Source of the DNA: Candidatus Doudnabacteria bacterium
Lineage (GTDB): Bacteria > Patescibacteriota > Doudnabacteria > UBA920
Assembly: GCA_963768175.1 (NCBI GenBank)
Contig: CAVYGQ010000001.1
Span: 510,305 to 574,304, forward strand
DNA length: 64,000 bases
Direction: 5' to 3'
Shown here: piece by piece, positions 2,899 to 61,552 of the stretch
Position numbering within the stretch: position 1 is the stretch's first letter
Layout of the letters: each line of letters begins with the position of its first letter
Notes under the pieces: generated by a model
The model's database searches: none
What the model was told of the DNA's origin: nothing
Seen by the model: only the letters and a program-made list of their open reading frames with translations
Position numbers and translations under genes: made by a program

Positions 2899-2907
2899 AA
2901 GTTTATT

Positions 2908-2996
2908 CACATGATTGACATGATTGATCAAGAATGACAAGATTGTCAGACCTTAATCATGTCAATCATTTAATTCTTTTGATTCTTGTCAATCAT
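2908..2996. promoter_or_regulatory. Cluster of palindromes and inverted ATGATTGACA motifs between zwf and gnd
   Basis: ATGATTGACATGATTGA (2911-2927). Perfect palindrome TGACAAGATTGTCA (2935-2948). ATCATGTCAATCAT (2956-2969) is the reverse complement of the upstream copy. TTGATTCTTGTCAATCAT (2979-2996). Confidence 0.35.
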
Positions 2997-4489
2997 TTCG
3001 TCCACCACTCTTTGGCGTCCCTCTTTATCCATTCATCCGCCTCCTTGGGGCCGTTGGACCTGGGCTTGTAAATATGGTTCGGCAGATTCCTGAACTCTTT
3101 GGCCTCGGTAATGCTGTCCACAAACTTCCAGCTGGCCTCTATTTCGTCGCTGCGGATGAACAAACGCTGGTCGCCTTCCAAAAAATCCAACAGCAAACGT
3201 TCATAAGCTCCCGGTATTTCCCCCTTAAAGGCGCGCCCGTAGCCGAATTCAAAATCGCCGCGGTGGAGGTTTACGCCAAAACCGGGAATTTTGTTGTTAA
3301 TCTGCAAATGCACCGATTCGTCCGGCTGGATTTGGAAAGTTAAGACGTTCGGCGCGTAGCCTTCAAACAAACTGCGGACCGGCTCGCGGAAATGGATGGA
3401 AATTTGGGTCAGCTTTTTGGAAAGTTTCTTGCCGGTTTTTAAATAAAAAGGCACGCCGGCCCAGCGCGGCAAATTGACGTAAGTTTTCAGCGCAAAGAAC
3501 GTTTCCGTCCGGCTTTGCTCCCCCGACTCGCGTGCCCAGGGCGAAACCGCGACTTCTTTTGCGTAACCCTGATACTGCCCCTTAACCAACCGCGCAGCCA
3601 ATTTTTCCGGCGTAAACGGCTCTAAAGCCTGCAGGACTTTTATTTTTTCGTCGCGGATGAATTCCGCCGTCAGTTTATACGGCTCGTCCATGGCGATTAA
3701 CGCCAACATCTGCAAAATATGGTTTTGCAAAAAATCTTTTATGGCGCCGGTGGAATCGTAATAGCCAATCCGCCCGGCCGCGCCGTCCTTTTCCAAAACC
3801 GAAATTTCCACATGGTCTATAAAGCGGTTATTCCATAGCGGCTCAAACAAGCTGTTGGCAAACCTTACCACCATCAGGTTCTGCACGGTTTCCTTGCCCA
3901 CATAGTGGTCAATGCGGTAAATTTGGTCCTCGGTAAAATATTTCAGCAGCAGCTGGTTTAAATTTTGCGCGGATTTTAAATTAAACCCGAACGGCTTTTC
4001 CAGCAACACCCTGACTTTGCGCTCATGCTCGGCGCAGGAAACCAGCAGACCCGAAGCTTTTAAAATTTTAGTGATAGGAGCAAACTGCTGGGGGTTGGTG
4101 GCAAAATAAAACAGGCGATTAAAGCAGACGTGTTTGGGCTGGTCGTGGTCGGCCAAAATTTTGGCCAAATCGGTAAACTGCTCCGCATGGTCAAAATCCC
4201 CGGAATAATATATCAAATGTTTTAAAAATGCGGATTTCTTGGTCGCGCTCAATTTTTTTACGACGCGGGATTTCTTGATTATAAAATTCAAATACGCTTT
4301 TGCCGTAAACGGGCGCCTGGCCACGCAAACCAACTTAAAAGTTTTTGGCAGCAATTTGTGCTCGTCCATATGCAAAAGAGCCGGGATTAAATAATCCGCG
4401 CTTAAATCCCCGGTCGCGCCAAAAATAGTTAAAATGGTCGGCGGCAAGTTTTGGCTAATACTATGGGAATGTATGTCTTCTTTGGCCAT
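2993..4489 (-). CDS. zwf: Glucose-6-phosphate 1-dehydrogenase
   Basis: Diagnostic RIDHYVGKE active-site motif, N-terminal NADP-binding GATGDL, length 498 aa. Confidence 0.9.
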   Translation of the reverse strand: MAKEDIHSHSISQNLPPTILTIFGATGDLSADYLIPALLHMDEHKLLPKTFKLVCVARRPFTAKAYLNFIIKKSRVVKKLSATKKSAFLKHLIYYSGDFDHAEQFTDLAKILADHDQPKHVCFNRLFYFATNPQQFAPITKILKASGLLVSCAEHERKVRVLLEKPFGFNLKSAQNLNQLLLKYFTEDQIYRIDHYVGKETVQNLMVVRFANSLFEPLWNNRFIDHVEISVLEKDGAAGRIGYYDSTGAIKDFLQNHILQMLALIAMDEPYKLTAEFIRDEKIKVLQALEPFTPEKLAARLVKGQYQGYAKEVAVSPWARESGEQSRTETFFALKTYVNLPRWAGVPFYLKTGKKLSKKLTQISIHFREPVRSLFEGYAPNVLTFQIQPDESVHLQINNKIPGFGVNLHRGDFEFGYGRAFKGEIPGAYERLLLDFLEGDQRLFIRSDEIEASWKFVDSITEAKEFRNLPNHIYKPRSNGPKEADEWIKRDAKEWWTK

Positions 4490-5628: not shown

Positions 5629-6154
5629 AAGGTTTGATACTGATATACGGATTAATACTGACCCGCCTGCCTACGCCTTCTGCCAAATTTTGATGGATAT
5701 TGATAATAAAATCAATAACCAACATCCATCGGACAGGCACAGACGGCATTGGCGGGCAGGTGATACAGATAATACGGATGTGTGATATCAGTATTATCAG
5801 TATAATCCGCATGCATTAGTATATCGGTATCTTATAAATATTATAGCAAATTTTTGCGAAAAAAGCATTTTGAATAAAGTACCGGTAGTTAGCCCATTCA
5901 TGGGCTGTTATGTTTTCTTATGAAGACAGCTGATAAATCAGCTAACTACACTACATGGCTGCCAACATTGACAAAACGCCAATATTTATGCTATATTTGT
6001 AGCGCAAACCCGGAAGAAGCGGGGTTTTTATTTGAAAATATAGAACACGGATTTACGGATAAAGAACGGATCTACCGATATCTACCGATTCTAACAAACA
6101 ATATCCGTAGACATCCGTTGATCCGAATCCAATCAGTAGATCCGTGTTAATTTT

Positions 6155-8134
6155 ATGAAACGCGACAACATCCGCAACATCGCCATAATCGCCCACGTTG
6201 ACCACGGCAAGACTACTTTGGTTGACGCCATGCTCAAGCAAACCCATACGGTTAAGGACAACCCCGAGACCAAAGATTTAATTATGGACAGCATGGATTT
6301 GGAGCGCGAGCGCGGCATTACCATTCGGGCGAAAAACGCTTCGCTTATTTATAACGGCATTCACCCCGTTAAATCCGCCGAAGGCGGGGCTGCTTCGCAG
6401 CCATTTAACGGGGTGAAAATTAACCTCATAGATACGCCGGGCCACACGGATTTTGGCGGCGAAGTGGAGCGGACTTTGCGTATGGCCGACGGCGTACTTT
6501 TACTGGTGGACGCCAAAGAAGGCCCTATGCCGCAAACCAAATTCGTGCTTAAAAAAGCTTTGGAGCTCGGTCTTAAAGCCATTGTCGTAATTAATAAAGT
6601 AGATAAACCAGACGCACAGGTGGAAGAGTCCACCAATAAAACTTTTGATTTATTTGTAAAACTGGATGCCAAAGATCACCAACTGGATTTCCAAATTATT
6701 TACGCGGCGGGCAGTTTGGGTTTGGCCGATACCGATTTAGAAAGTTTAAGATCCAAAATCAAAAGCCATGCCGCGCCGGATGTTGCTCCCCTATTTGAGT
6801 CCATAATTAAATTTATTCCAGCACCCGACGTAAAACCTGAAGATCCTTTTGCCATGCTGGTTTTGGCTTTGGTTTACGACAACTACAAAGGCAAAATGGG
6901 CATTGGTAAAATTATTTCCGGCTCCATTAAAAAAGCGCAAACCATTTGCAGAATCAAGACCGACGGCCAGCGCGACAACGGCAAAATTACTTCCTTACAA
7001 ATGTATGAAGGTTTGGCGCCCGTGAACGTGGAAGAAGCCGTAGCCGGCGACATTGTGGCCATTGGCGGCTTTGACGACATTTCCATTGGCGAAACTTTAA
7101 CCGATCCCCTAAATCCCATCCATTTGGAGCCGGTAGAAATAGAGCCGCCCACAATTAAAATGACCTTTGGCGTGAACACTTCCCCGTTTGCCGGCAAAGA
7201 GGGCAAGTTTGTGACCTCCCGCAATTTGCGGCAGCGGCTTTACAAAGAGCTGGAAATAAACGTGGCGCTTAAAGTTGCCCCGTCCGAAGAAGGAGCCGAA
7301 AGCTTTTTGGTTAGCGGACGCGGCGAACTGCATTTGGGAGTTTTGATTGAAACGATGAGGAGAGAAGGTTTTGAACTGCAGGTTTCCCAGCCGCAGGTTA
7401 TTTACCATTATGCTCCAAAATCTCACCCCCACCTAGCCTCCCCCCTCAAGGGGGAGGAAAACAAAGTTTCCCTCCCTGGAGTGGAGGGGTCAGGGGAAGG
7501 TGATATGATTAAGCTTGAGCCCTACGAAATTGTCAGCATAGATGTGCCCAGCGAATATCAGGGCGCGGTAATAGAAAATTTGGGCAAGCGCGGCGGGGAA
7601 ATGCAAGGCCTGGACACCAGCTCAAGCGGCGAAATGCACGCGGAATATCTTATCCCCACCAGAGGGCTTATTGGCCTAAAAAGCTTATTGCTTACCCAAA
7701 CGCGCGGCACCGTAATAATGAACAATTTATTTGACAGCTATAAACCCGTACACGAAATAGATTCCCACGCCAATGACCACGGCAGTTTAATTTCCAGCGA
7801 AACCGGCGTATCCAACGCTTACGGCCTTAACAACGCGCAGGAGCGCGGCATCCTGTTTATCGGCCCAGCCGTGGATGTTTACGAAGGCATGGTAGTAGGA
7901 AAAAACTCTGTAGATACGGACTTGGAATTAAACGTCTGTAAAACTAAAAAACTCACCAACATCCGCTCCTCCGGCACGGACGAAGCCATAATCTTAACCC
8001 CTCCCCGCCCCATTGAGCTGGACTTTGCGTTGGAATACATCGGCCCTGACGAGTTGGTGGAAGTTACCCCCAAGAGCATTCGCATTCGCAAAAAAATCTT
8101 GAACGCCACCGAACGCAAACGCGCCGCCCGCTAA
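6155..8134 (+). CDS. typA: Translational GTPase TypA/BipA (carries two in-frame insertions)
   Basis: [13 protein letters not shown]1 motif, [20 protein letters not shown], and the BipA C-terminal domain. Length 659 aa versus about 600-610 for canonical BipA. Confidence 0.9.
6359..6418 (+). repeat. Palindromic element inserted in-frame in typA. It is a perfect 14-bp terminal inverted repeat ATTCACCCCGTTAAAT / ATTTAACGGGGTGAA enclosing two nested hairpins (CCGCCgaaGGCGG and GGCTGCttcGCAGCC).
   Basis: Seen in sequence. Encodes [18 protein letters not shown] inserted between YNG and [11 protein letters not shown] of the otherwise canonical G domain. AACGG is duplicated at both junctions. Confidence 0.65.
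7421..7504 (+). repeat. Second GC-rich hairpin-bearing in-frame insertion in typA. Hairpins are CCTCCCCC-TCAA-GGGGGAGG and CCCTCC-ctggagt-GGAGGG. Outer ends TCACCCCC...GGTGA resemble the first element.
   Basis: Encodes about 34 extra residues ([34 protein letters not shown]) between the conserved QVIY and IKLEPYE segments. Confidence 0.45.
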
Positions 8135-8212: not shown

Positions 8213-8965
8213 TCAAACTTCCAAATCAAAGGAAATATTTTTTTCTACCCACAGAAGTCCTTTTTTAGTTAAATGCGCGGAATCGTTCCGAAAATCTAAT
8301 CTACCATCAACATTTAATTCGTTTAGCTGCCGTCGCAAAACTCCCTTGTTAGTATATCCTGTCCAATCAAAAATATCGTCCAAAGAAATATTTTCCGGAT
8401 ATTTCTGGTAACAAAAAACAAGGACTTTTTCTTTTACATTTAACTTTGAATTTAGACATTTTAGCCGGCCACCAATTTCTTCAATTATTGGTACTTTTCG
8501 TTCAATAATCTTTTTAATTTCAGCCTGAGCTTCACAGGGAGTCATTTGCGTTTCTAAACGAACCAGCTCGGCAACAATCCAATTGGCTGCATTAAGCACA
8601 AATATAGAATCCACCTCATTTACGTCTACCGCACCTGGGTGTGCTACATTCCGCTTATTGCGAAAATCCAAAATAAGCTCAGCCAACCCGAGGATGTGAA
8701 AGCGTAAAGATTCATCGAGGCTTACATTTTTCCGCACAGCGGAAGCTATAACAAGTCGCTTAATTTGAGTCCCAATTGCAGTATACTTACTCGAATGTTT
8801 ATATTCTAAAATCCGAAAAACAATTTCTGCAAATCGTCCGCCGTCTAACTGACTTGGTTCCCAACGCCCAAGAAAATACTGCTGGTGCAGTTTTTGAAAT
8901 TCAGTTTGAAGATCATTGACTAGACTGCCCGGCAAATTACTTAGGTGTTGGGTTAGTGGGTTCAT
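8213..8965 (-). CDS. Hypothetical protein with a putative HEPN-like Rx4-6H motif (FRNKRNVAHPG); possible Abi or toxin-like nuclease
   Basis: 250-aa ORF in a low-GC islet. The R-x6-H motif is embedded in a predicted helical region. The assignment rests on the motif only. Confidence 0.45.
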   Translation of the reverse strand: MNPLTQHLSNLPGSLVNDLQTEFQKLHQQYFLGRWEPSQLDGGRFAEIVFRILEYKHSSKYTAIGTQIKRLVIASAVRKNVSLDESLRFHILGLAELILDFRNKRNVAHPGAVDVNEVDSIFVLNAANWIVAELVRLETQMTPCEAQAEIKKIIERKVPIIEEIGGRLKCLNSKLNVKEKVLVFCYQKYPENISLDDIFDWTGYTNKGVLRRQLNELNVDGRLDFRNDSAHLTKKGLLWVEKNISFDLEV

Positions 8966-9350
8966 TGGTTAGAAATTTACTAAAAAATTTTTCCCCTGTT
9001 TGTGAAAGATCGAGGCTCCCATCTATCGACCTCACATACCCATCCTTAATTGCTCTACTTAATAATGTATTCGCATATTTACCATCAAATTTTCCGTTCT
9101 TCCAGCCTTCTTTTAATTCTACTTCAGTGAGTGGCTGCCGTTTCAAAATTTTTTCGTAATACCCAACAATAACACCAATTTTTTCTTGCCCCGATTTAAA
9201 ATCTTTACCCTTTATAATTTCTGCCAAGGCAGGTTGTTTACCTTTGCCCGTTCCAAGATCCGTGGTTTGAATTCCACCCTTTTCAAGTATGGTGATCCTT
9301 TTCTCGTGATCATTGAGTTGTTGAACTATTTGCTCTAAGTTGTGTGCCAT
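8937..9350 (-). CDS. Hypothetical small protein with a helical N-terminus and a possible winged-helix segment (TLLSRAIKDGYVR)
   Basis: 137-aa ORF that overlaps the downstream gene by 29 bp, suggesting an operon. Confidence 0.45.
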   Translation of the reverse strand: MAHNLEQIVQQLNDHEKRITILEKGGIQTTDLGTGKGKQPALAEIIKGKDFKSGQEKIGVIVGYYEKILKRQPLTEVELKEGWKNGKFDGKYANTLLSRAIKDGYVRSIDGSLDLSQTGEKFFSKFLTNEPTNPTPK

Positions 9351-9378
9351 AATAATTAATTAATGCTAATATGTAGAC

Positions 9379-9795
9379 CTATTTTCTTTCTGCGTAAGCC
9401 CATTTTTCTTTCCCTTCAGGATTTTGAGCAGGGACTCGAACTAAAACTCGATTTTGAACCAAACGTATCAACGCTGTTGAAATAACTTGGCGCGTATAAT
9501 GGAAGCCGGCTTGTTGTAACTTCTGTAAAACCTGGGGTAAAGTCTTCGGACTTTTTAAATCACCGTCTTTTAATAAAAGCAAAATTCCACCCTTTGGCCC
9601 TTTAAACTTAAGCACTTTTGGATGCTCCTTATTCTTTGCTGTTAGTACAGAACTCTCCCCCATATTCTTAGCTAATTCGGTTAAAAGCGATTGTATTTCG
9701 CTAATAATATCAAGGTTTCTTTTGTTTGTATCCATAAATATATGTTTAATTATTACATCTTGATTAGTATATACCGTATTCTTCCTTATTGTCAA
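9379..9795 (-). CDS. Hypothetical small protein with a C-terminal winged-helix DNA-binding-like segment (BlaI/MarR-like: QVISTALIRLVQNRVLVRV)
   Basis: 138-aa ORF. A likelier start is the internal Met at about 9735. Confidence 0.45.
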   Translation of the reverse strand: MTIRKNTVYTNQDVIIKHIFMDTNKRNLDIISEIQSLLTELAKNMGESSVLTAKNKEHPKVLKFKGPKGGILLLLKDGDLKSPKTLPQVLQKLQQAGFHYTRQVISTALIRLVQNRVLVRVPAQNPEGKEKWAYAERK

Positions 9796-10116
9796 GGGCT
9801 AAATTTAAAACTAAAATGATTACACAAGTAAACAAATTATTAAATACGTTCAATGAAAGTAAATAAACCTTTCAAATAAAGCTAAATTTGGAATTTAAAA
9901 TAAACAGTTTTGTTAATCTTAATAATCACATAAAAATGTCCAGCTACTAACTTTGGACCTAATATAAAGGGTCACATGCTTTTCATAACCCTAAAATGAC
10001 TATTTTGGGCAGGGGGGTTATAATACCCATATAACCATATGTGCGGAGCGTTTTCCATTTTACATCCTATGGCCAAGCTCTAATTCGCGCGAATAGGAGA
10101 ACGCTAAAAATCATAA

Positions 10117-29939: not shown

Positions 29940-30986
29940 TTAAACCATTAATTTTTTAATTTTTTCCAACTTGTTACTTTTAGCGGAGCAGTATAAAGCT
30001 TCCAAAGCCAAAACGACTTCAACGTTGTCTTGGGCGCTGGCCAAAGGCTGACGCTTTAAAATAATTGCCTGTCTGAATTCCTTCCACTCTTCCTTCCAGG
30101 AAACATCTTCCCCGACAAACTCAAAAATTTCTTCCAAAGGCGCGCGCCCCTGCCCGACATCCGTGCCTAAGGTTAAAGTCTCTACCCCATAGCTTTTGCC
30201 CAGACCGTTGATAATCAAGTAGCCTTTGTTGCCGTAAATTTCAAAATTAAACCTGTTTTTCCACTGCGTCAGGCTGGCATGGAAAAAAACATTGGCGCCG
30301 CCGGCGGACTCCAAAAGGGCAAAAGAATTGTCCTCCAGCCGGCTTTTGTGCCAATATACATTCTTGTTGACGGCAAAAGCTGACTTAAACTTGCCCAAAA
30401 ACCAAAATGCCAAATCTATAATATGCACGCCTTGGTCAAACAATTCCCCTCCGGGGGAATATTTTTTTTGCATGCGCCACTCTAAATCGTAGCCTGGCCT
30501 GGCGCCATGGCCGTAAACGCTGCGGATGTACATGGCCTTGCCGATTTTACCGGCTTTGTAAAGTTCAAAAGCTTTTGCCACGGCCGGATGGTGGCGGTGG
30601 TTAAAGCCGACTTTTAAAATTTTGCCGCTCTTTTGGGCGGCCTTGCTTACGGCCAAGGCGTCCTTGGATAAACTGCCCAAAGGTTTTTCCACCAAAACAT
30701 TTTTTTTGGCCGCCAAAACTTTTAGCGCCAAGCCCAAATTAACATCGGTAGTGGCAGCAATAACCACGGCATCAACTTTGCTGTTGTTAAAAATGGCGCC
30801 TAAATCCCGGACGGCGGCCGCGTGGGCGGCATTAGCCAGGGCTTGAGCTTTTTTGAAATTGATGTCGTAAACTGCAACCACTCGGTCAGTTTTTAAATCT
30901 AAAATCGCCTGGACCCTTTTAGCCCCAATGTTGCCGGCGCCGATTATGGCGATGTTTAATTTACGGTTTTTTATCCCGTTAGGCAT
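29940..30986 (-). CDS. Gfo/Idh/MocA family NAD(P)-dependent oxidoreductase
   Basis: IAIIGAGNIGAKR Rossmann motif and a Gfo/Idh/MocA C-terminal domain. Confidence 0.7.
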   Translation of the reverse strand: MPNGIKNRKLNIAIIGAGNIGAKRVQAILDLKTDRVVAVYDINFKKAQALANAAHAAAVRDLGAIFNNSKVDAVVIAATTDVNLGLALKVLAAKKNVLVEKPLGSLSKDALAVSKAAQKSGKILKVGFNHRHHPAVAKAFELYKAGKIGKAMYIRSVYGHGARPGYDLEWRMQKKYSPGGELFDQGVHIIDLAFWFLGKFKSAFAVNKNVYWHKSRLEDNSFALLESAGGANVFFHASLTQWKNRFNFEIYGNKGYLIINGLGKSYGVETLTLGTDVGQGRAPLEEIFEFVGEDVSWKEEWKEFRQAIILKRQPLASAQDNVEVVLALEALYCSAKSNKLEKIKKLMV

Positions 30987-31057
30987 ATAATTTTATGCGC
31001 GATTTATTAATCAAACTGCTTATTTTATCTGTCTTTGTTCCCCGATAAACGAAATGT

Positions 31058-31915
31058 CTAATGGGATTCATAAAAATATTTGTTATCAATTCTCCTTAAA
31101 GTATAGCTCGAATTTCGATTAATTTCGTCCACTATTTTTTTGCTGAATGTTTTCCAACCGTCCCACTTGACGGATATCAACTTGCCGGTTAGGTTATGGG
31201 ATTTGGTGGAACATAAAAATAAAATCAGTTCCGCCGCCAGTTCGGCGGAATCTCCGCCGCTTTGCTTTTGTTTTAAGGCCGCGTAGAATTCGCTGTCCCC
31301 GGCTTTTTTGCCGGCTTTTAAAGTTTCTGCTAAAAACTTGGTGTTAATCGCCCCCGGCGCAATGGAGTTAACCTGAATATGGTATTTCTCGTACTCCCGC
31401 GCCAAATTTTCCGTCAGTCTGACTACCGCGGCTTTGGAAACGGCATAGGCGCTAAAATTCGGCCGCGGCTGTACTGCGCCGCCGCCCGACATATTAATAA
31501 TTTTCCCGCTTTTCTGTTTGGCCATTTTCGGCAATACCGCCATGGCCATATGCACCGTCCCTAAAAGGTTTATGGCAATTGTTTTTTGCCAATCCTTAGC
31601 CGAAACTTTAGCGGTCTCCCCCACCGGCCCCAATATTCCGGCGCAATTTACCAAAACGTCAACCCGTTTGAATTTGGATAAAACTTTTTTTACCGCCGCC
31701 CGGGCCTGCCGAAAATCTGAAACATCGGCAGCCACTGTCAAACAAGGGGAAATAGCCAATAAAATTTTTGCGGCCGTGTTTAATTTTGCGCGGCTGCGAC
31801 CAACTAAGGCCACAGACGCACCGGCTTTGGCAAAAGCCAAAGCCGCGGCCCAGCCGATGCCGCTGGCGCCTCCGGTTATTACCACAACTTTATTTTTAAA
31901 TTCTTTTCCCGTCAT
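31058..31915 (-). CDS. Short-chain dehydrogenase/reductase (SDR)
   Basis: VVVITGGASGIG, NAG, and YxxxK (YAVSKAA) motifs. Confidence 0.75.
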   Translation of the reverse strand: MTGKEFKNKVVVITGGASGIGWAAALAFAKAGASVALVGRSRAKLNTAAKILLAISPCLTVAADVSDFRQARAAVKKVLSKFKRVDVLVNCAGILGPVGETAKVSAKDWQKTIAINLLGTVHMAMAVLPKMAKQKSGKIINMSGGGAVQPRPNFSAYAVSKAAVVRLTENLAREYEKYHIQVNSIAPGAINTKFLAETLKAGKKAGDSEFYAALKQKQSGGDSAELAAELILFLCSTKSHNLTGKLISVKWDGWKTFSKKIVDEINRNSSYTLRRIDNKYFYESH

Positions 31916-37386: not shown

Positions 37387-38560
37387 TTATTTTATCGGCA
37401 GAACTCCCTGATGACACCCCAAAACCATGCCGGTTTTCATAATTCGCTCGGTATTGGGATATTCTTTCTGTGCCAGCCGGCGGGGAATTTTTTTAAAGCC
37501 GGGCTGCTTTAAAATATTGCCCGTAAAAATCGGGCGGGTTTGGATATTGGAATTCTCCAAAAATGTTACTAAGTCAAAACGCGAAAACGGGGCGGAAAAT
37601 TTTATGATTATGGGAAAAGACAGCCAGACGGTATCGGCGTTTTCCGTAGTTTTGGGTAAGATAAAATATTTTTCGTATTTTTGGAAAAATCGGTATAACC
37701 GGTTAAAGCTGTCTTTTCGGATTTTAGCGAACTTTGGCAGTCTTTTCAGCTGCTCCAGGGCAAAGGCTGAAGAAATTTCCAGAGGCAAAAAATTGTAGCC
37801 AATTTCGCTAAAAATAAATTTATTATCATACGGCACACCGCCGATCTTGCTTCTGAAACGATTAGCTAAAATTTCCGAATTTTGTTTCTCGCCAAAAAGG
37901 GACGACTGCCGCCCCAGCCGCGCAATACTACCAAACGATCCGCCCAAGCTGGATTGTTAACGCAGACCATTCCCCCGCCACCAGCCCCGTTTATGATATG
38001 CGAACCATAAAAACTGGTAGTGGTAATGTCGGAATATCTACCAGTTGGCCGGCCGGCAAATTAACCGCCCAGGGTGTCGCAGGAGTCCTCAATAAAAAAC
38101 AATTTGTGTTTTTTTGCAATGGCAGCCAAGCGCTTCATGTTGGGATGTTTCCCAACAGGGAAGGTATCATCAACGCGCGGGTTTTTTTGGTAATGGCCTT
38201 TTCTAATTGTTCAATATTTATTAAATAGGTGTTTAAATCCACATCCACAAAAACCGGTACCAGTCCTTTTTGAATTATCGGAGCTACTGCAGTTGAAAAA
38301 GTCAGTAATGGTGTAATTACTTCGCTGCCCTTGGGCAATTGAAGCAATTCAAATGCAAGCAAATTTGCCGAAGAACCACGATCGACCATAATCCCGTAAT
38401 TTTTCTGAAAAATTTTGGCAATTTTTTTTTCAAACAGCTTGGTTCTGTTTCCCAAAGCGGTATTGTCTTTTAATACTCCCACAACGGCATTAATTTCCTC
38501 TTTACCGTGGACAGATAACGCATACGGTACACGCATATTTTGTAATTTTTTTTTCGGCAT
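37387..38560 (-). pseudogene. DegT/DnrJ/EryC1/StrS-family PLP aminotransferase disrupted by at least 3 frameshifts
   Basis: N-terminal ORF 38135-38560 and C-terminal ORF 37387-37947 are both DegT-like. Hand translation of the 37948-38134 gap shows the middle segment (MKRLAAIAKKHKLFFIEDSCDTLGG, then ...TSFYGSHIINGAGGGGMVCVNNPAWADRLVVLRGWG) in three different frames, with breaks at A/T/G homopolymers. Confidence 0.6.
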
Positions 38561-55086: not shown

Positions 55087-57324
55087 TTATTTAAGGGAAT
55101 TTATAAAATCCTGAAAATGCTTGGCATCAGCGGCATCTTGGGTAATTAACGATTGGGCGATGGCAATGGCCTCTTGCTTGTTGCCAAGCTTGGCGTCATC
55201 CTGCGCCAAGGCCCAAAGATCCTGCAAAGCGCTCGGGTCAATTTTTACCGCGAGCCGGTAAACATCCGCGGCAGCGGCAAAATTATTTTGCTTATCGTAT
55301 AAAGCCCCAAGCCAGTCAATTTGCCTGGCCGCGGTGGGCTGGTAGCCGGAGTTTAGAACCTCCCGGGCGGTTTGCATAGCTTTATCGCTTTGGTTGGAAT
55401 AATAGTAAATAACCGCAAGCTGAAGTTTTGCTTCGTTATCCTGCGGGATATCGCCGACGATTTTTTCATATATGGCCGCCGCTGCCGTTAGATTATTTTG
55501 CGAAATGTCAAGGCGGGCCAGCATTTCCTCGGGCTCCGGGCGCTTGGGCGCCAAATTCACGGCTGTTTGGGCGGCCAATACTGCATTTGGATCCAAAGCG
55601 GTTTTGTTATAAATGGAATTTGCCAAATACAGGTTGGAAAGATCCTGCCAAGCGGTCGGATCGTTAGGCACCCGCTTTACAGCCTCCTGCTCAGCATTAA
55701 TGGCATCCTGCAGATTTTGACTAATGAACTGGGCTGTTACGCCTGAAGGAGGATTGCCCGCCAAACTCGTGGCAAAATCCGCATACTTTAAGATAAATTG
55801 GACGGGGTCAAAATCAAACGGAGAATTTAACCCTTTGTCAAAATAACTTTTGGCAATTTGCGGGTCAACGGCGGCATAGGCATAGCCGAAATTTACGTCC
55901 TTAGCCACCTGTAGGCCGGTAATATTGCCCAAATAAACAACATATAAAATTACCACGGCCGATATGCCGAACGCCACGCCGGAAAACATCGGATCCAAAC
56001 CGGATTTCCTGTTTTTGTTCGGCGCATCAACCGCGCGTGATTCGTGCCACAAATAAGCCATCAAGCCGATATATATAAAAAATGCCATGCTGGCGCCGAC
56101 GGTATCAAAGACGAATAAATTTTGGATTTGGTAAACTATCAGCCCGCAGACCAACAAACAAAATTCCGGCAGGAGCAAAATTTGTTTGCGGAAGGCCGCC
56201 CACATCGCCCAGAGGGAAAACACCAGCAAACCCAGGTAAGCGGCAAAGCCAAAAATTCCGCTGGTCACCAAAACTTCTATTAAATAATTGTGCGGCTTGT
56301 CAAACCAGCTGGGGTCGTACTGGTAAATTGCGGGGTTGTAATATTTATTGGAAATAAAATAATAATTTTCCGGCCCCACGCCCAAAATCGGATGGTCTTT
56401 ATAGCCCTTAAGCGCCACCCCCCACTGTATCAGCCTGGCCTCAGTATTAACGTCGTTAAGGTTAAACACGCGATGCAGCATCCCCCCTTGCGGAAGATCG
56501 GCATGAAACGTAAACAGTAAAACAACAATAACTCCGAATGCCACGACTAAGGAGCCACCCCATATCCTAATTTTCCTGGCAGGATTTAAAACAACATATA
56601 AGACCGCCGCGACAAAAATACCGATACCCAAACCCACCACGCAGCCGCGGGTCTCGCTCAAAAAAATTACCCAAGCCTGGAGCAGTACAAATACCCAATA
56701 CATAATTTTTTTCCATACCGCCTCTTCCGAAACGGCAAAAAACGCGGCCAAAAACATCGGAATTACCATGAAACTGGCAATGAATATCGGGTTGCCAAAA
56801 GTGCCGGAAACCCTGCGGGTAAGAAGGGTCGTTAAGTAAAAAATGATTATGCGTCAACTGGACCATAACGCCGTCCAAAGAAAGGGTTACTCCAATGCCG
56901 ACCAAAAACTGTAAAAATAGACGCAAATAACGGACATTCATTTGCCCTATCATTAAAACGTAAAAATATAGCAAACAAAGATGGGCTAAATAAAACACGC
57001 CGCCCATGCGCTCAAAGTTGCCCCAAATGCTGCGCAAAGGATTAACCCCGAACAGTCCGGCAATCAGGTTAAACAAAAAAAAGCCAATATGGAAATAGTC
57101 AGGGGGTTTTTAAACGACGGGCGGTATTGGGGGTAGCGCAAAAATAAATACAAATAAAACGGCAGTGCCAATTCCACCAAAATACGGAGATAAAAAGCTT
57201 TGGAAGTGACAAAAGGAAACAGCAATTCCTTAAATACCATAAATGGCGTCAGCATCGCCAAAGCAACCAAACCGATAAATACAAAAGAAACAAATTTTTT
57301 ATTCACCCCGTTAGAAGTCGCCAT
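55087..57324 (-). CDS. O-antigen ligase/polymerase-like membrane protein (Wzy_C domain) fused to C-terminal TPR repeats. The coding sequence is split over three overlapping ORFs (57064-57324, 56567-57076, 55087-56769) by apparent frameshifts.
   Basis: N-terminal fragment MATSNGVNKKFVSFVFIGLVALAML. The Wzy_C-like region contains LVTSGIFGFAAYLGLLVF. The C-terminal 250 aa are TPR-like. The middle ORF decays into nonsense, consistent with a frameshift near 56.8 kb. Confidence 0.5.
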
Positions 57325-57859
57325 GGTTTTGGTATTTAGATAAAATGATATTAATTTAATGATTTATACCCCGAAAAAATTTTTAAATAACTTCTAACGG
57401 GGTTCATTGTTCGTGGGTCAATTAAGCTATACGATAACTTTACATAATACCGGGTGATTTTTCAAGCAAACATAAAATTTTCAAAAGGGAATCTTTGACC
57501 ATTACATCCTAAAACGCACCAAAACCGCCGTAAATATCGTATTAATAGTCAGACGGAAGGCCGTGCCCCGGCCGAATTTTCAATGTCCTAAAAAGGGTGT
57601 ATAATTATAAAGGATAAATAGATAATTATTAACATTTGAAACAAACAACATTTATTCACCCTGTTAGAAGCTTTAACCATTAAATTGGGGCTTTTAGAAC
57701 AGGGGGTTAAAGTTAAAAAAAATAACACAAAAATATGAACCCCGTTAGACATTTAACTCAAAATAATATTTTTGTAAAATTAAGCATCATTAAAATTATG
57801 AAAAATCTAAAAACAAAAATCATATCTAACGGGGTGAATGCTTCTAACAGGGTAAAAAA
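57301..57859. repeat. Array of at least 6 copies (both orientations) of a roughly 16-bp motif TCTAACGGGGTGAAT / ATTCACCCCGTTAGA between and overlapping the divergent starts of the ligase-like gene and the giant surface-protein gene
   Basis: Copies at 57301 (ATTCACCCCGTTAGAAG), 57391 (CTTCTAACGGGGTTCA), 57651 (ATTCACCCTGTTAGAAG), 57736 (TGAACCCCGTTAGA), 57824 (ATCTAACGGGGTGAATG) and 57841 (CTTCTAACAGGGTA), plus a degenerate copy at 57692. The motif matches the terminal inverted repeat of the typA insertion at 6359. Confidence 0.55.
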
Positions 57860-60513
57860 TAGTTTAACAATCAAGCTTACGGCTGCGGTCTTTGCTTTGT
57901 CCGTATTTGGGGCGGCAGGCACGGCTTTAGCTGCCACGCCGATTTTACAGGTAACCCAAAGCGGCAACAGCTATGTGCTTACGGTCAATAATGCCGATGC
58001 CAATGCCACGGTGAGCCTATACGAAAAACAGAGCGCTTCGCTATGGTCGGTAATCAGCAGTTGGGGCCAAACAAGCAGCAGCGGTAGCTTTAGTGCCACG
58101 CAGCCTTTGGCGTTTGACGGCAGCGGTAACGCCCTGCAATTGTATGTAATGGTCGACGGCCTGCAATCCTCTATAGTCAATGTTTATTCCAGCGGCACCT
58201 GTACCACCAACTGCGGCACCGGCACGCTTAGCCTAAGCCAGATGCTGGTAAATTTAAGCACCAACCAGACCAATGTTGTTACGGCCTACCCGACCAGCGG
58301 CAACATTTACGTTTCCGGCAACAGCAACGCCAATGCCGTAAATTACTCCTTAAACGGCAACCAAATCACCGTAACGGGTGTGGCCACGGGCAGCAGCATT
58401 ATTACCGTCTGCTCAAATGGCGGCAGCCAGTGCGGCACCATAACGGTTTCGGTTAACGGCGCGACTACCACCGGCATCACTTTTGACAACAGCAGCCCCA
58501 CCATTACGCTCGGCCAAAGCCTGAACGTCAATATTTACAGCAGCACGGGCAGCAGCAACGGCTTTTACGTTTCCAGCAACAGCAATGCCAACTCCGTAAA
58601 CGTCACGCAAAGCGGCAGCACGCTGACGATTTACGGCCAGCAGGTCGGCACGGCCAGTATTTCCGTCTGCCAGACCGGCACGTCGTTTTGCGGTACGCTG
58701 TCAGTGACTGTGGGCAGCAACGGCGGCCAAGCCGGCATGACCATAAGCACCAACACGCTCACTTTGCGCCCGGCCAGAGCGGCACGGCCACCGTGTCCAA
58801 TACCTACGGCTCCCTCTACATTTTCAATAACTCCAACAGCAGCGTAATAAGCGCCGGCATCAGCGGCCAGACCGTGACTGTTTACGCGATAGTCGCAGGC
58901 TCAAGCACGTTGAGCATCTGCCAAAACGGCTATAGCGGCTGCGTCAGCCTGTACGTGCAGGTCAGCGGCAGCAACAACTCCATTAGCGGCAGTTTGTCGT
59001 TCGGCACGGCCAATCCGGTTTTAACTATCGGCCAAAGCCAGAGCGATACCATTTATCCCCCAAACGGCAACTCAAACGGCTTTTACATTTCCAGTAACAG
59101 CAACAGTAACGCGGTCAGTACCACAATCAGCGGTTCAACTTTAACGATGTTCGGCCAGAACACCGGTACGGCAACTATTAAAGTTTGCAGCAACGATAAT
59201 TCTTACTGCGGCAATGTTTACGCCACGGTCAACGGCTATAGCGGCGGCGTGACATTCAGCCAGAGCACGGTTAATTTGAATCTCAACCAAAACTCCAGCA
59301 TTACCGTATCCGGCGGCACCGGAAGCTATGTGCTAACCAGCAATACCGGCCCGAACGTGGTTGCGGCCTCATTGACCGGCAGCACGCTGTATTTGAACGC
59401 TTTAAATAACGGCAGCGCCACCATTACGGTTTGCCAAAGCGGCAACACTTCGGCCTGCGGCCAGGTTATTGTAACTGTCGGCGGTTCAAGCAACGGCAAC
59501 AACATTATTACCTTCAGCAACAGCAGCCCGGCCGTGGCAGTCGGCCAAAGCCAGACCGTAACCGTCTACACCACCAACGGCTGGACCGGAAATTATTCCG
59601 TAACAAGCAACAGCAATTCAAACGCGGCAACCGTCAGCGTAACAGGCACTTCAATTAACATTACCGGCATACAAAACGGCAGTACTATTATCACCGTTTG
59701 CCAAACCGGCAGTTCGGTTTGCGGCACCCTGACCGCCACAATCGGTACCGGCGCTACCTCCAGCCCGGTTACTTTTGCCACCACCGGCCTGCCAGCCGGA
59801 ACTGTGGGTTTAAGCTACGGCTACCAGCTTCAGGCCCAGGGCGGCGCGGGAAGTTACACTTATTTCCTACCTTCGGGAAGTTTGCCGGCCGGGATTACGC
59901 TTTCCACTGGCGGGTTAATCCAAGGCATCCCCACTGCCACCGGTACCACCAGTTTTACCCTACAGGTTACCGACAGCGGCGGCACCAGCCAAAACTTGAA
60001 TTTCAGCATTACCGTAAACCCCGCTTCTCCGTCTGCCACAACTCCACAAGCTGCAGGCAATGGCACTTATACAAACGGCCAACTGATTAACGAAAACGGC
60101 ACCATATCAATCGTATACAAAAACACCAAAACCCCCTTTGCCAATGCCGCGGCATTTTTGGGTCTGGGTTTTAAGTTCAGCGATGTGTGGCGGTCAGCAA
60201 TTCCGGCTTGCCGCTTTCCAATAAAATAGTAGTGACGGCCGACGGCGGCCACCCGCGCGGCAGCTGGCTGTTAGTCGGTTCTACGGTTTACTTCCTAACC
60301 CCGAACGGAATGATTCCGATACCAAGCTGGGCAATATTCCTCAGTAACGGCGGCCAAGCAGGTTTTCTGGTCAAGGCCAACAGTTACGACCTTAATTTCC
60401 CCAAACTTCCACTAATGGTAGACAATGATGCAAGGTTGAAAATAATGCTAAAAAGTGACCCCACCTCGACAGAGAGGACACCCGAAACCGCGGATCGAAA
60501 TCCCACCCTTTAA
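57798..60513 (+). CDS. Giant secreted Cys-containing tandem-repeat surface protein. It has a signal peptide, about 8 tandem repeats of roughly 85 aa each with two Cys, a putative Ig (He_PIG-like) domain, and a C-terminal F-x-S-A-x-A-F-x-G-L-G-F module. It is interrupted by at least 2 frameshifts (near 58.75 kb and 60.19 kb).
   Basis: ORFs 57735-58847, 58688-60229 and 60187-60513 are consecutive pieces of one repetitive protein. The signal peptide is MKNLKTKIISNGVN...AVFALSVFGAAGTALA. Confidence 0.55.
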
Positions 60514-60844: not shown

Positions 60845-61552
60845 TTACTCCCGGCTTAAATAGGTGGCGTTATAAAGTACCCGCAAGAGCAAAGAATATT
60901 GCTTTGCGGAAATAGCATAATTATTGTCGTTGTCCGGGTTAGGCAAGCCCAAGTCGGTATAAATCTCATTAAAACATTGCTGATTGATATTGTTCAAAAC
61001 ACATTTTTTGCCCCGTTGTCGGAAGAGATTATCATGGCTTCTATTAATTGTTCCACGGTATAACTCTTGCCGACTTGCAAATTTGAAGGGTTTCAAAAGG
61101 TACGCCGTTAATTTGATCCGCGGTGCTGGTGGAATATACCAAAGTTTTTTGCAAAACCGACGGATAGTTTCCGCTTCCTTATAAAATAAGTAATCATAAC
61201 GGCGACCTTCATCATGCTGGCCGGGGCGTAAGCGGTATTTTCGTTAATGCCCACCCAGCGGCCCAAAGTCAAATCGCGGAAATAAAAAGAAAAACCCTGC
61301 AATTGGGAATTATTCTTTCGGCTTACGGCGTTTTGTACTTCATTTATTAAGCAGGTATTCGTCAAATTCCTTAACATTGCCCGGAAGGTCATAGCCCAGC
61401 AAGGGATTAATATACTGTATAAGCATTGTCGTTTTGGCGCGAAGGCTTAACCTGGTCGGCGATATTTTTAATGACGCCATTGTATAAAAATGCCAACAGA
61501 CGGAAGCCACCAATATTCCGGCGATAAAAGCCAGAACGCAATAAACCACCAA
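60845..61552 (-). pseudogene. Possible class A beta-lactamase-like or penicillin-binding-type serine hydrolase split into 3 frames (SxxK-like APASMMKV)
   Basis: Three consecutive short minus-strand ORFs. The N-terminal one has a TM helix; the middle one has a GINENTAYAPASMMKVAVMI motif. Weak assignment. Confidence 0.3.

Follow-up and report, generated by a model that had tools for sequence, protein, structure and literature searches.

The divergent control region between a ligase-like gene and a surface-protein gene, within a 64-kb stretch of a Candidatus Doudnabacteria genome (contig CAVYGQ010000001.1, positions 510,305 to 574,304; hereafter the window), carries a cluster of short repeats. 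The original prediction read this cluster as either an operator array or a hotspot for a small mobile element. Our analysis indicates that it very probably consists of three copies of a non-autonomous transposon of approximately 95 bp with terminal inverted repeats (a MITE, or miniature inverted-repeat transposable element), and that an insertion in the typA gene of the same window is a short relative. We directly observed inverted repeats, target duplications, empty and filled orthologous sites, nesting of one copy within another, in-frame read-through and a wide distribution of the family.

Repeat Units of the Divergent Region

The window was scanned with the motif TCTAACGGGGTGAAT, allowing up to 3 mismatches and using 100 shuffles as the null. 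Eight matches were recovered, compared to a shuffle mean of 1.64 and a maximum of 4 (0 of 100 shuffles reached 8). Six of these lie within 57301-57857, confirming the predicted minimum of six copies in both orientations within about 560 bp, and two of them (57301 and 57825) are exact. The remaining two fall in typA, where the pair supports the earlier identification of the motif with the terminal repeat of the typA insertion.

While the copies are real, they do not form a loose array. The six matches instead resolve into three inward-facing inverted pairs, nested or adjacent to one another. The pair 57301(-)/57393(+) delimits a 97-bp unit and 57735(-)/57825(+) a 95-bp unit, with the latter enclosed by an outer unit bounded by 57654(-) and 57843(+). 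Each of the three takes the form CCCCGTTAGA...TCTAACGGGG and spans about 95 bp. Together with the typA insertion and a decayed copy elsewhere, five element copies were found at three loci, a count that refers to the 64-kb window only (Table 1). These copies measure 50-97 bp and have no capacity to encode a transposase.

Table 1. Repeat matches, element copies and associated signals in the window
Feature	Position	Strand	Remarks
Short relative in typA	6364..6413	+	50 bp; terminal stem and two inner hairpins; in frame, adds 18 codons
TCTAACGGGGTGAAT matches, typA	6359(-), 6404(+)		1-2 mismatches to motif
Decayed fifth copy	30974..31066	-	93 bp; TCCCGTTAGG...TCTAATGGGA
TCTAACGGGGTGAAT matches, divergent region	57301(-), 57393(+), 57654(-), 57735(-), 57825(+), 57843(+)		
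MITE copy 1	57306..57402	-	97 bp; CCCCGTTAGAAG...CTTCTAACGGGG; in ATGAA of the ligase-like gene start
ATG inside copy 1	57322..57324	-	Opens the MATSNGVN reading
Promoter-like site TTTTCA-17-TATAAT	57577..57605	+	Just upstream of copy 2; consensus scan only
MITE copy 2 (older, outer)	57659..57852	+	95 bp of its own plus 99-bp nested insertion; 5' end of surface-protein gene
MITE copy 3	57740..57834	+	95 bp; nested in copy 2 at the ATGAAT start codon carried by copy 2
ATG in copy 3	57798..57800	+	MKNLKTKIISNGVN...; candidate surface-protein start

Empty and Filled Sites at the Ligase Gene

Copy 1 is flanked by the duplication TTCA on the forward strand (TGAA in gene orientation; 57302-57305 and 57403-57406). 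Read in gene orientation, copies 1 and 3 share the same junctions, starting as ATGAA/CCCC and ending as GGGG/TGAAT, so that each lies between direct 4-bp TGAA repeats. The ligase-like protein has many homologues of 737-746 aa in Patescibacteria (matches named Doudnabacteria or Patescibacteria group). Most of these begin with MNKKF, while the window protein and the homologue P0008 begin with MATSNGVNKKF and P0011 with MAVSSGVQNKKF.

Comparison of the syntenic loci revealed both presence and absence of the element. Precise empty sites, ATGAAY AAAAAATT, occur in the related loci L003, L124 and L125, whereas the window and L002 have filled sites, ATGAA/CCCC...GGGG/TGAAT AAAAAATT; in L127 the copy has decayed. 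The empty and filled DNA together place the insertion in A/TGAA/Y of the first two codons. The original ligase ATG was thereby displaced to 57405-57407, and the right end plus the duplicated target restores GTG-AAT, giving an alternative start (GTG, 57304-57306). The motif had been described as overlapping the ligase ATG. The MATSNGVN reading holds, but the motif itself covers codons 4-8, just past the ATG.

Mobile cargo of various kinds lands in the intergenic region upstream of the ligase gene, which in relatives holds different small modules for defence or of the toxin-antitoxin type. In L002 (1927-2841) an MNT+HepT toxin-antitoxin pair lies there, between element copies, while L125 has an MNT-type nucleotidyltransferase (48-991) and L003 has AbiEii (8523-10000).

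Nested Copies at the Surface-Protein Start

Copy 2, with arms ACCCTGTTAGAAGC and GCTTCTAACAGGGT, is orthologous to a copy at 1674-1767 of L002 that has no nested element. Both arms of copy 2 bear the same two changes relative to this orthologue. Copy 3 is bounded by TGAA duplications at 57736-57739 and 57835-57838, and its insertion of 99 bp amounts to 33 codons that are open in frame and read MNPVRHLTQ...KIISNGVNASNRV; the final part, KIISNGVNASNRV, confirms the reading that the original prediction gave for the surface-protein open reading frame (ORF). Excising copy 3 together with one TGAA yields ATG AAT GCT TCT AAC AGG GTA AAA, which matches ATG GAT ACT TCT AAC GGG GTA AAA in L002. Copy 3 therefore landed in a start codon that copy 2 had carried. 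This older ATG is now displaced (57735-57737), with the Ig-like domains of the surface protein downstream. The gene-proximal end of the local subfamily, in both the window and L002, has the form ATG-xxx-xCT-TCT-AAC-GGG-GT.

From these relationships, one copy would have inserted at the ligase start and an older one at the surface-protein start, with a younger copy then entering the ATGAAT of the older. The local subfamily also has its own in-frame ATG 9 nt 5' of the right repeat. The start codon in use and any influence of a 5' hairpin on expression are inferred. L002 conserves both the -10 region of the promoter-like site between the copies and the flank downstream of it; if such sites are used, the elements would lie in 5' untranslated regions (UTRs) or leaders.

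Both genes had been noted to begin with an SNGVN peptide. This coincidence is genuine, but it does not reflect a conserved functional peptide: the repeat is translated in one of its two open frames, and the SNGVN peptides are a by-product of that translation.

Several genes of the window appear broken. In the ligase-like gene (55087-57324), two frameshifts, one near 57079-57088 and the other near 56800, compensate each other, and one of them adjoins an A8 run. The gene for the Ig-domain surface protein (57798-60513) and one for a DegT-type aminotransferase (37387-38560) are likewise split by frameshifts, and a fragment of a beta-lactamase-family gene lies at 61108-61392. All of these may be either pseudogenes or products of assembly indel errors.

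The typA Insertion and a Decayed Copy

The element in typA folds strongly (-39.8 kcal/mol; z -8.4). Compared with solved BipA structures, the protein gains exactly 18 residues immediately before the DTPGH motif. Of the 120 TypA proteins closest to it, 117 lack this insertion; P0199 shares a copy in decayed form, and P0161 has only a shorter insert at the same spot. At the DNA level, the closest relative (L248) reads uninterrupted through TAT AAC GGC ACC AAA ATT, giving the empty site GGCACCAAAATT, and L249 shares the typA copy in a decayed form. No exact-sequence record was found for the typA product.

The decayed fifth copy separates an upstream SDR gene, for which the repeat supplies the TAG stop, from a downstream GFO/IDH/MocA gene whose start (MPNGIK) falls inside the other arm.

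A second, unrelated hairpin-rich insertion is present in frame in the same typA gene (7410-7496), where it adds 29 residues behind residue 418; its arms are CCTCCCCC/GGGGGAGG and GGGAGGAAAAC/GTTTCCCTCCC. Variable inserts occupy this position in about 20 of 120 homologues, several of them reading SPLPLGEGQGEG, suggesting that a further family of palindromic elements has a hotspot of its own here. Upstream of typA (6040-6150), three ACGGAT hexamers are followed by three ATCCGT hexamers within about 110 bp. Similar CGGAT-rich repeats precede the typA of L248, and such repeats might form a structured leader or a set of operators.

Distribution and Target Sites of the Family

To delineate the family, genomes (one per species) were scanned with ACCCCGTTAGA-N(60-90)-TCTAACGGGGT. 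This recovered the same termini in at least 120 stretches of genome, spread over many phyla. Hosts include many classes of Patescibacteria, Omnitrophota, Planctomycetota (Pirellulales, Brocadiaceae, and Phycisphaerae), and Deltaproteobacteria/Thermodesulfobacteriota, the last with a closed 3.3-Mb chromosome (CP113000.1). Further hosts belong to Nitrospirota, Cloacimonadota, Clostridia, KSB1, and Gammaproteobacteria. A scan of viral contigs gave 0 matches. Sites are nearly always paired as minus then plus, and often nested (minus, minus, plus, plus). Several metagenome-assembled genomes (MAGs) contain 2-5 copies. The interiors are mostly unrelated between lineages. The repeat CCCCGTTAGA / TCTAACGGGG extends only weakly to 13 nt.

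Flanking sequences revealed a clear target signature. Among non-redundant elements, T occurs at -3 in 146 of 157 (93%) and A at +3 in 148 of 157 (94%). The two bases in between agree on the left and right in 103 of 158 elements, compared to 24.8 +/- 4.3 under the null (at most 40 in 10,000 shuffles). These flanks amount to a 4-bp TNNA duplication, most often TAAA/TTTA (54), TGAA/TTCA (23), or TCAA/TTGA (17), with a purine preferred 5' and a pyrimidine 3' of it. An independent single-end scan of metagenome contigs gave identical flanking 4-mers in 64 of 114 elements (null 15.6 +/- 3.3). Sizes in this set range from 23 to 232 bp and include bare hairpins of about 30 bp with duplications. Such hairpins, 23-40 bp long (L136, L150, L168, L213, L247, and others), consist of two terminal repeats and a 3-10-nt loop, and the TNNA duplications of many are intact. 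These represent either mobile units of minimal size or remnants of internal deletion.

Insertion into Start Codons and Reading Frames

In 75 of 152 elements from genomes and 55 of 114 from metagenome contigs, the insertion adds a multiple of three bases, where 33% would be expected. Among copies inside long open frames the proportion rises to 23 of 27, many of them near the N-terminus. Two frames of the element can be read through, yielding NPVR...SNGV (the frame used in the window) or TPLE...LTGF; the third is closed by TAG/TAA within the repeat. As the repeat is open in two frames, copies with an inserted length of 3n can persist inside genes, and in-frame copies were found in typA, exonuclease, methyltransferase, ABC-F-like, and pilin genes. 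By Pfam, the neighbouring genes (125 ORFs) are ordinary housekeeping genes.

Start codons are a recurrent site. Of 74 TGAA-flanked ends, 30 lead straight (GTG AAx) into an ORF 100 codons or more in length, compared to 0-1 in the other frames. A purine (A or G) precedes the left TGAA in 35 of 37 cases. These counts indicate that the family as a whole habitually inserts at start codons. The preferred context RTGAAY includes ATG-AAY, making the first two codons of genes that begin Met-Asn or Met-Lys natural targets. Insertion leaves a start codon intact, in the sequence ...GGG GTG AAY that the right end forms with the duplicated target. The habit is explained by target preference together with survival of the insertions that are tolerated.

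Prepilin leaders provide a second class of site. Those of L012 and L044 carry the element in frame and keep the sequence G/FTLIE; because this cleavage motif is regenerated, prepilin peptidase would remove the extra residues. The copies lie within 2902-3522 and 6042-6638 of L012 (a Jorgensenbacteria MAG) and within 6333-7022 of L044 (an Omnitrophica MAG), once in tandem. In L124, a DNA methyltransferase gene adjoins a copy (8441-8521) whose right arm has changed to TCTAATGGGGT. This mutation made the ATG at which the gene is called to start (8515).

Proposed Mode of Transposition

We propose that the element has the ends 5'-CCCCGTTAGA(R)(A)(T)...TCTAACGGGG-3' and would insert at 5'-TNNA-3' with duplication of the four bases; most targets are TTNA/TNAA, and the usual context is R-TNNA-Y. 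Mobilisation would take place in trans, probably by a DDE-type transposase making 4-nt staggered cuts. The C-run ends (CC.../CCC...), the 4-bp T..A duplication (TTAA for piggyBac), and TAGA near the tip are features that we take to be shared with IS1380/piggyBac transposons. The target differs, being TTNA/TNAA rather than TTAA, and no such transposase was found beside any copy.

Several observations weigh against a transposon origin. The searches recovered no autonomous partner. No transposase ORF was found between matching ends across 1.6 Mb of loci, with the collection scans spanning up to 600 bp, nor did Pfam reveal a transposase among the 125 neighbouring ORFs or in the annotated parts of the window. 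None adjoined solitary, unpaired ends in a metagenome sample. Approximately 35-45% of copies have no matching duplication. These include copy 2 (flanks TTCA and TAAA) and the typA copy, for which comparison with the empty site of L248 gave no recognisable target duplication and whose flanks, TTCA and TGAA, extend the stem. Copies without matching flanks still keep T...A, as recombination between copies would give. T...A flanks fit a 2-bp duplication with target preference equally well. Multi-copy MAGs were not used as proof of independent transposition, as those of L009 and L033 are parts of a larger duplicated segment and those of L012 lie in paralogous pilin genes.

Alternative Explanations

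Whatever their origin, the copies might have been exapted as structured elements, retained because hairpins in the RNA or DNA govern where translation starts or how stable the mRNA of the two genes is. The copies do pair into stem-loops, with terminal stems that fold strongly (z -4.4 to -8.4), and start codons lie beside or within the 3' arm. Moreover, the ATG-bearing end faces the gene at 5 of 5 gene-start sites (the window ligase, outer surface, and 31-kb copies, and the ligase and surface copies of L002). Maintenance of the stem would fit copy 2, whose two changes relative to L002 occur in both arms, and matching double changes outnumber non-matching ones across the family (15 vs 4). However, such matching changes would also arise from subfamily-specific ends or arm-to-arm repair. 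Interiors unrelated between lineages, no matching Rfam family (chance-level matches only in the window region, and none on units in 18 other loci), relatives that do without the element, and the frameshifted appearance of both window genes likewise speak against retention for a function, which we consider unlikely.

We regard as very improbable an invertible switch (inverton or shufflon), in which a recombinase would flip the segment between 57301/57825 or 57393/57735, swapping the promoter and 5' ends to give phase variation. Two perfectly complementary 15-nt pairs do flank 509 and 327 nt with a single good promoter-like site inside, the repeat is in frame in both genes such that exchange would preserve both frames, and surface glycan and adhesin genes are typical phase-variable targets. 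Yet two element copies in opposite orientation fully explain the inverted pairs, and the annotated parts of the window revealed no recombinase. L002 has the same relative orientation with its toxin-antitoxin pair in between, no relative shows an alternative orientation, and the motif family has duplicated targets, unlike inversion sites. This candidate was dropped once the pairs had proved to be the ends of element copies whose targets are duplicated, and once an empty site had come to light.

The predicted operator array, in which transcription-factor sites would co-regulate the divergent ligase and surface-protein genes, and with them glycan and adhesin expression, receives scarcely any credence from us. 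In its favour, six copies lie in a 560-bp divergent control region, some overlapping both gene starts and with a promoter-like site between them. The same 11-mers, however, recur as inward pairs with duplicated flanks at more than 120 unrelated loci in many phyla, and some copies lie inside coding sequence (typA, exonuclease, methyltransferase, and pilin genes). In addition, the close relatives L003, L124, and L125 have both genes with the motif wholly absent. The competing proposal of a small-mobile-element hotspot is borne out by the terminal inverted repeats, target duplications, empty sites, and nesting.

Membership in another palindromic class is extremely improbable, despite the dispersal of short palindromes through genomes, the toxin-antitoxin genes between the L002 copies, and the fit by eye of GTTAGA / TCTAAC to the attC core GTTRRRY / RYYYAAC. 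Integron attC sites were rejected as every pair has the order GTTAGA...TCTAAC, the reverse of the RYYYAAC...GTTRRRY expected within 57-141 bp, with no integrase among the neighbouring ORFs. Repetitive extragenic palindromes (REP/REPIN), moved by REP-associated tyrosine transposases (RAYTs), are characterised by a self-palindromic unit of 20-40 nt, a GTAG/CGTC tag, no duplication, and a RAYT gene. Here the single arm is not self-palindromic, target duplications are present, unlike in REP or attC, and no RAYT, Y1 transposase, or integrase occurs among the neighbouring ORFs.

Relation to Known Elements

The MITE family of the window appears undescribed and unusually widespread; its kind, in being a MITE with in-frame behaviour like that of the Rickettsia palindromic elements (RPEs), is already known. 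In the literature open to searching, we found no match to the repeat sequence and none to MITEs of the candidate phyla radiation (CPR)/Patescibacteria, returning general MITE reviews only.

RPEs are short palindromic selfish elements that have inserted repeatedly in frame in unrelated genes and are translated as an extra peptide (PMC10969869). The window family resembles them in that copies lie in frame within typA, exonuclease, methyltransferase, ABC-F-like, and pilin genes, a likeness of behaviour with no relationship of sequence expected. RPEs are about 150 bp long and confined to Rickettsia, whereas the window family ranges from 23 to 232 bp, has a sharply conserved 10-13-bp end and a clear TNNA duplication, occurs across many phyla, and prefers to insert at start codons and in prepilin leaders. 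Also of similar build are the classical bacterial MITEs Correia/NEMIS (Neisseria) and RUP (Streptococcus pneumoniae), which measure about 100-150 bp, end in inverted repeats, and duplicate a short target (see also PMC10969869). They lie in or near gene 5' regions, form a transcript hairpin, and are mobilised in trans or by a mobiliser not yet known, properties that the elements here share or would share. They differ in having a TA duplication, longer and unrelated inverted repeats, and a range of one genus each, in contrast to the TNNA duplication and cross-phylum range found here. QMITE1 of Coxiella burnetii and intragenic ERIC are MITEs that make in-frame fusions with host ORFs (PMC10969869); their ends and duplications are other than those of the window family, and each is found in a single lineage.

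A broader interpretation, to which we give a little less than even credence, is that these elements form an undescribed superfamily of miniature transposons. It would span more than 10 phyla and be defined by a near-invariant 10-13-bp end. The design of end and target, with an R-TNNA-Y site, an end that restores GTG, and two open frames, would allow it to settle exactly on start codons, in cleaved prepilin leaders, and in frame within essential genes, rewriting N-termini and 5' leaders. Its transposase would possibly belong to a new or unexpected family.

Implications

At this locus, there is no need to invoke a dedicated regulator or a conserved SNGVN signal, as both the inverted repeats and the N-terminus common to the two genes are scars of a transposon. 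In genes that bear the element, gene callers will place the start wrongly. More generally, a miniature transposon common to tiny-genome Patescibacteria and many uncultured anaerobes survives on start codons, in prepilin leaders, and in frame within housekeeping genes such as typA. The element introduces variation into the N-termini and 5' UTRs of surface genes and can serve to mark horizontal exchange among very distant phyla, and it provides a defined DNA end from which its transposase can be traced.

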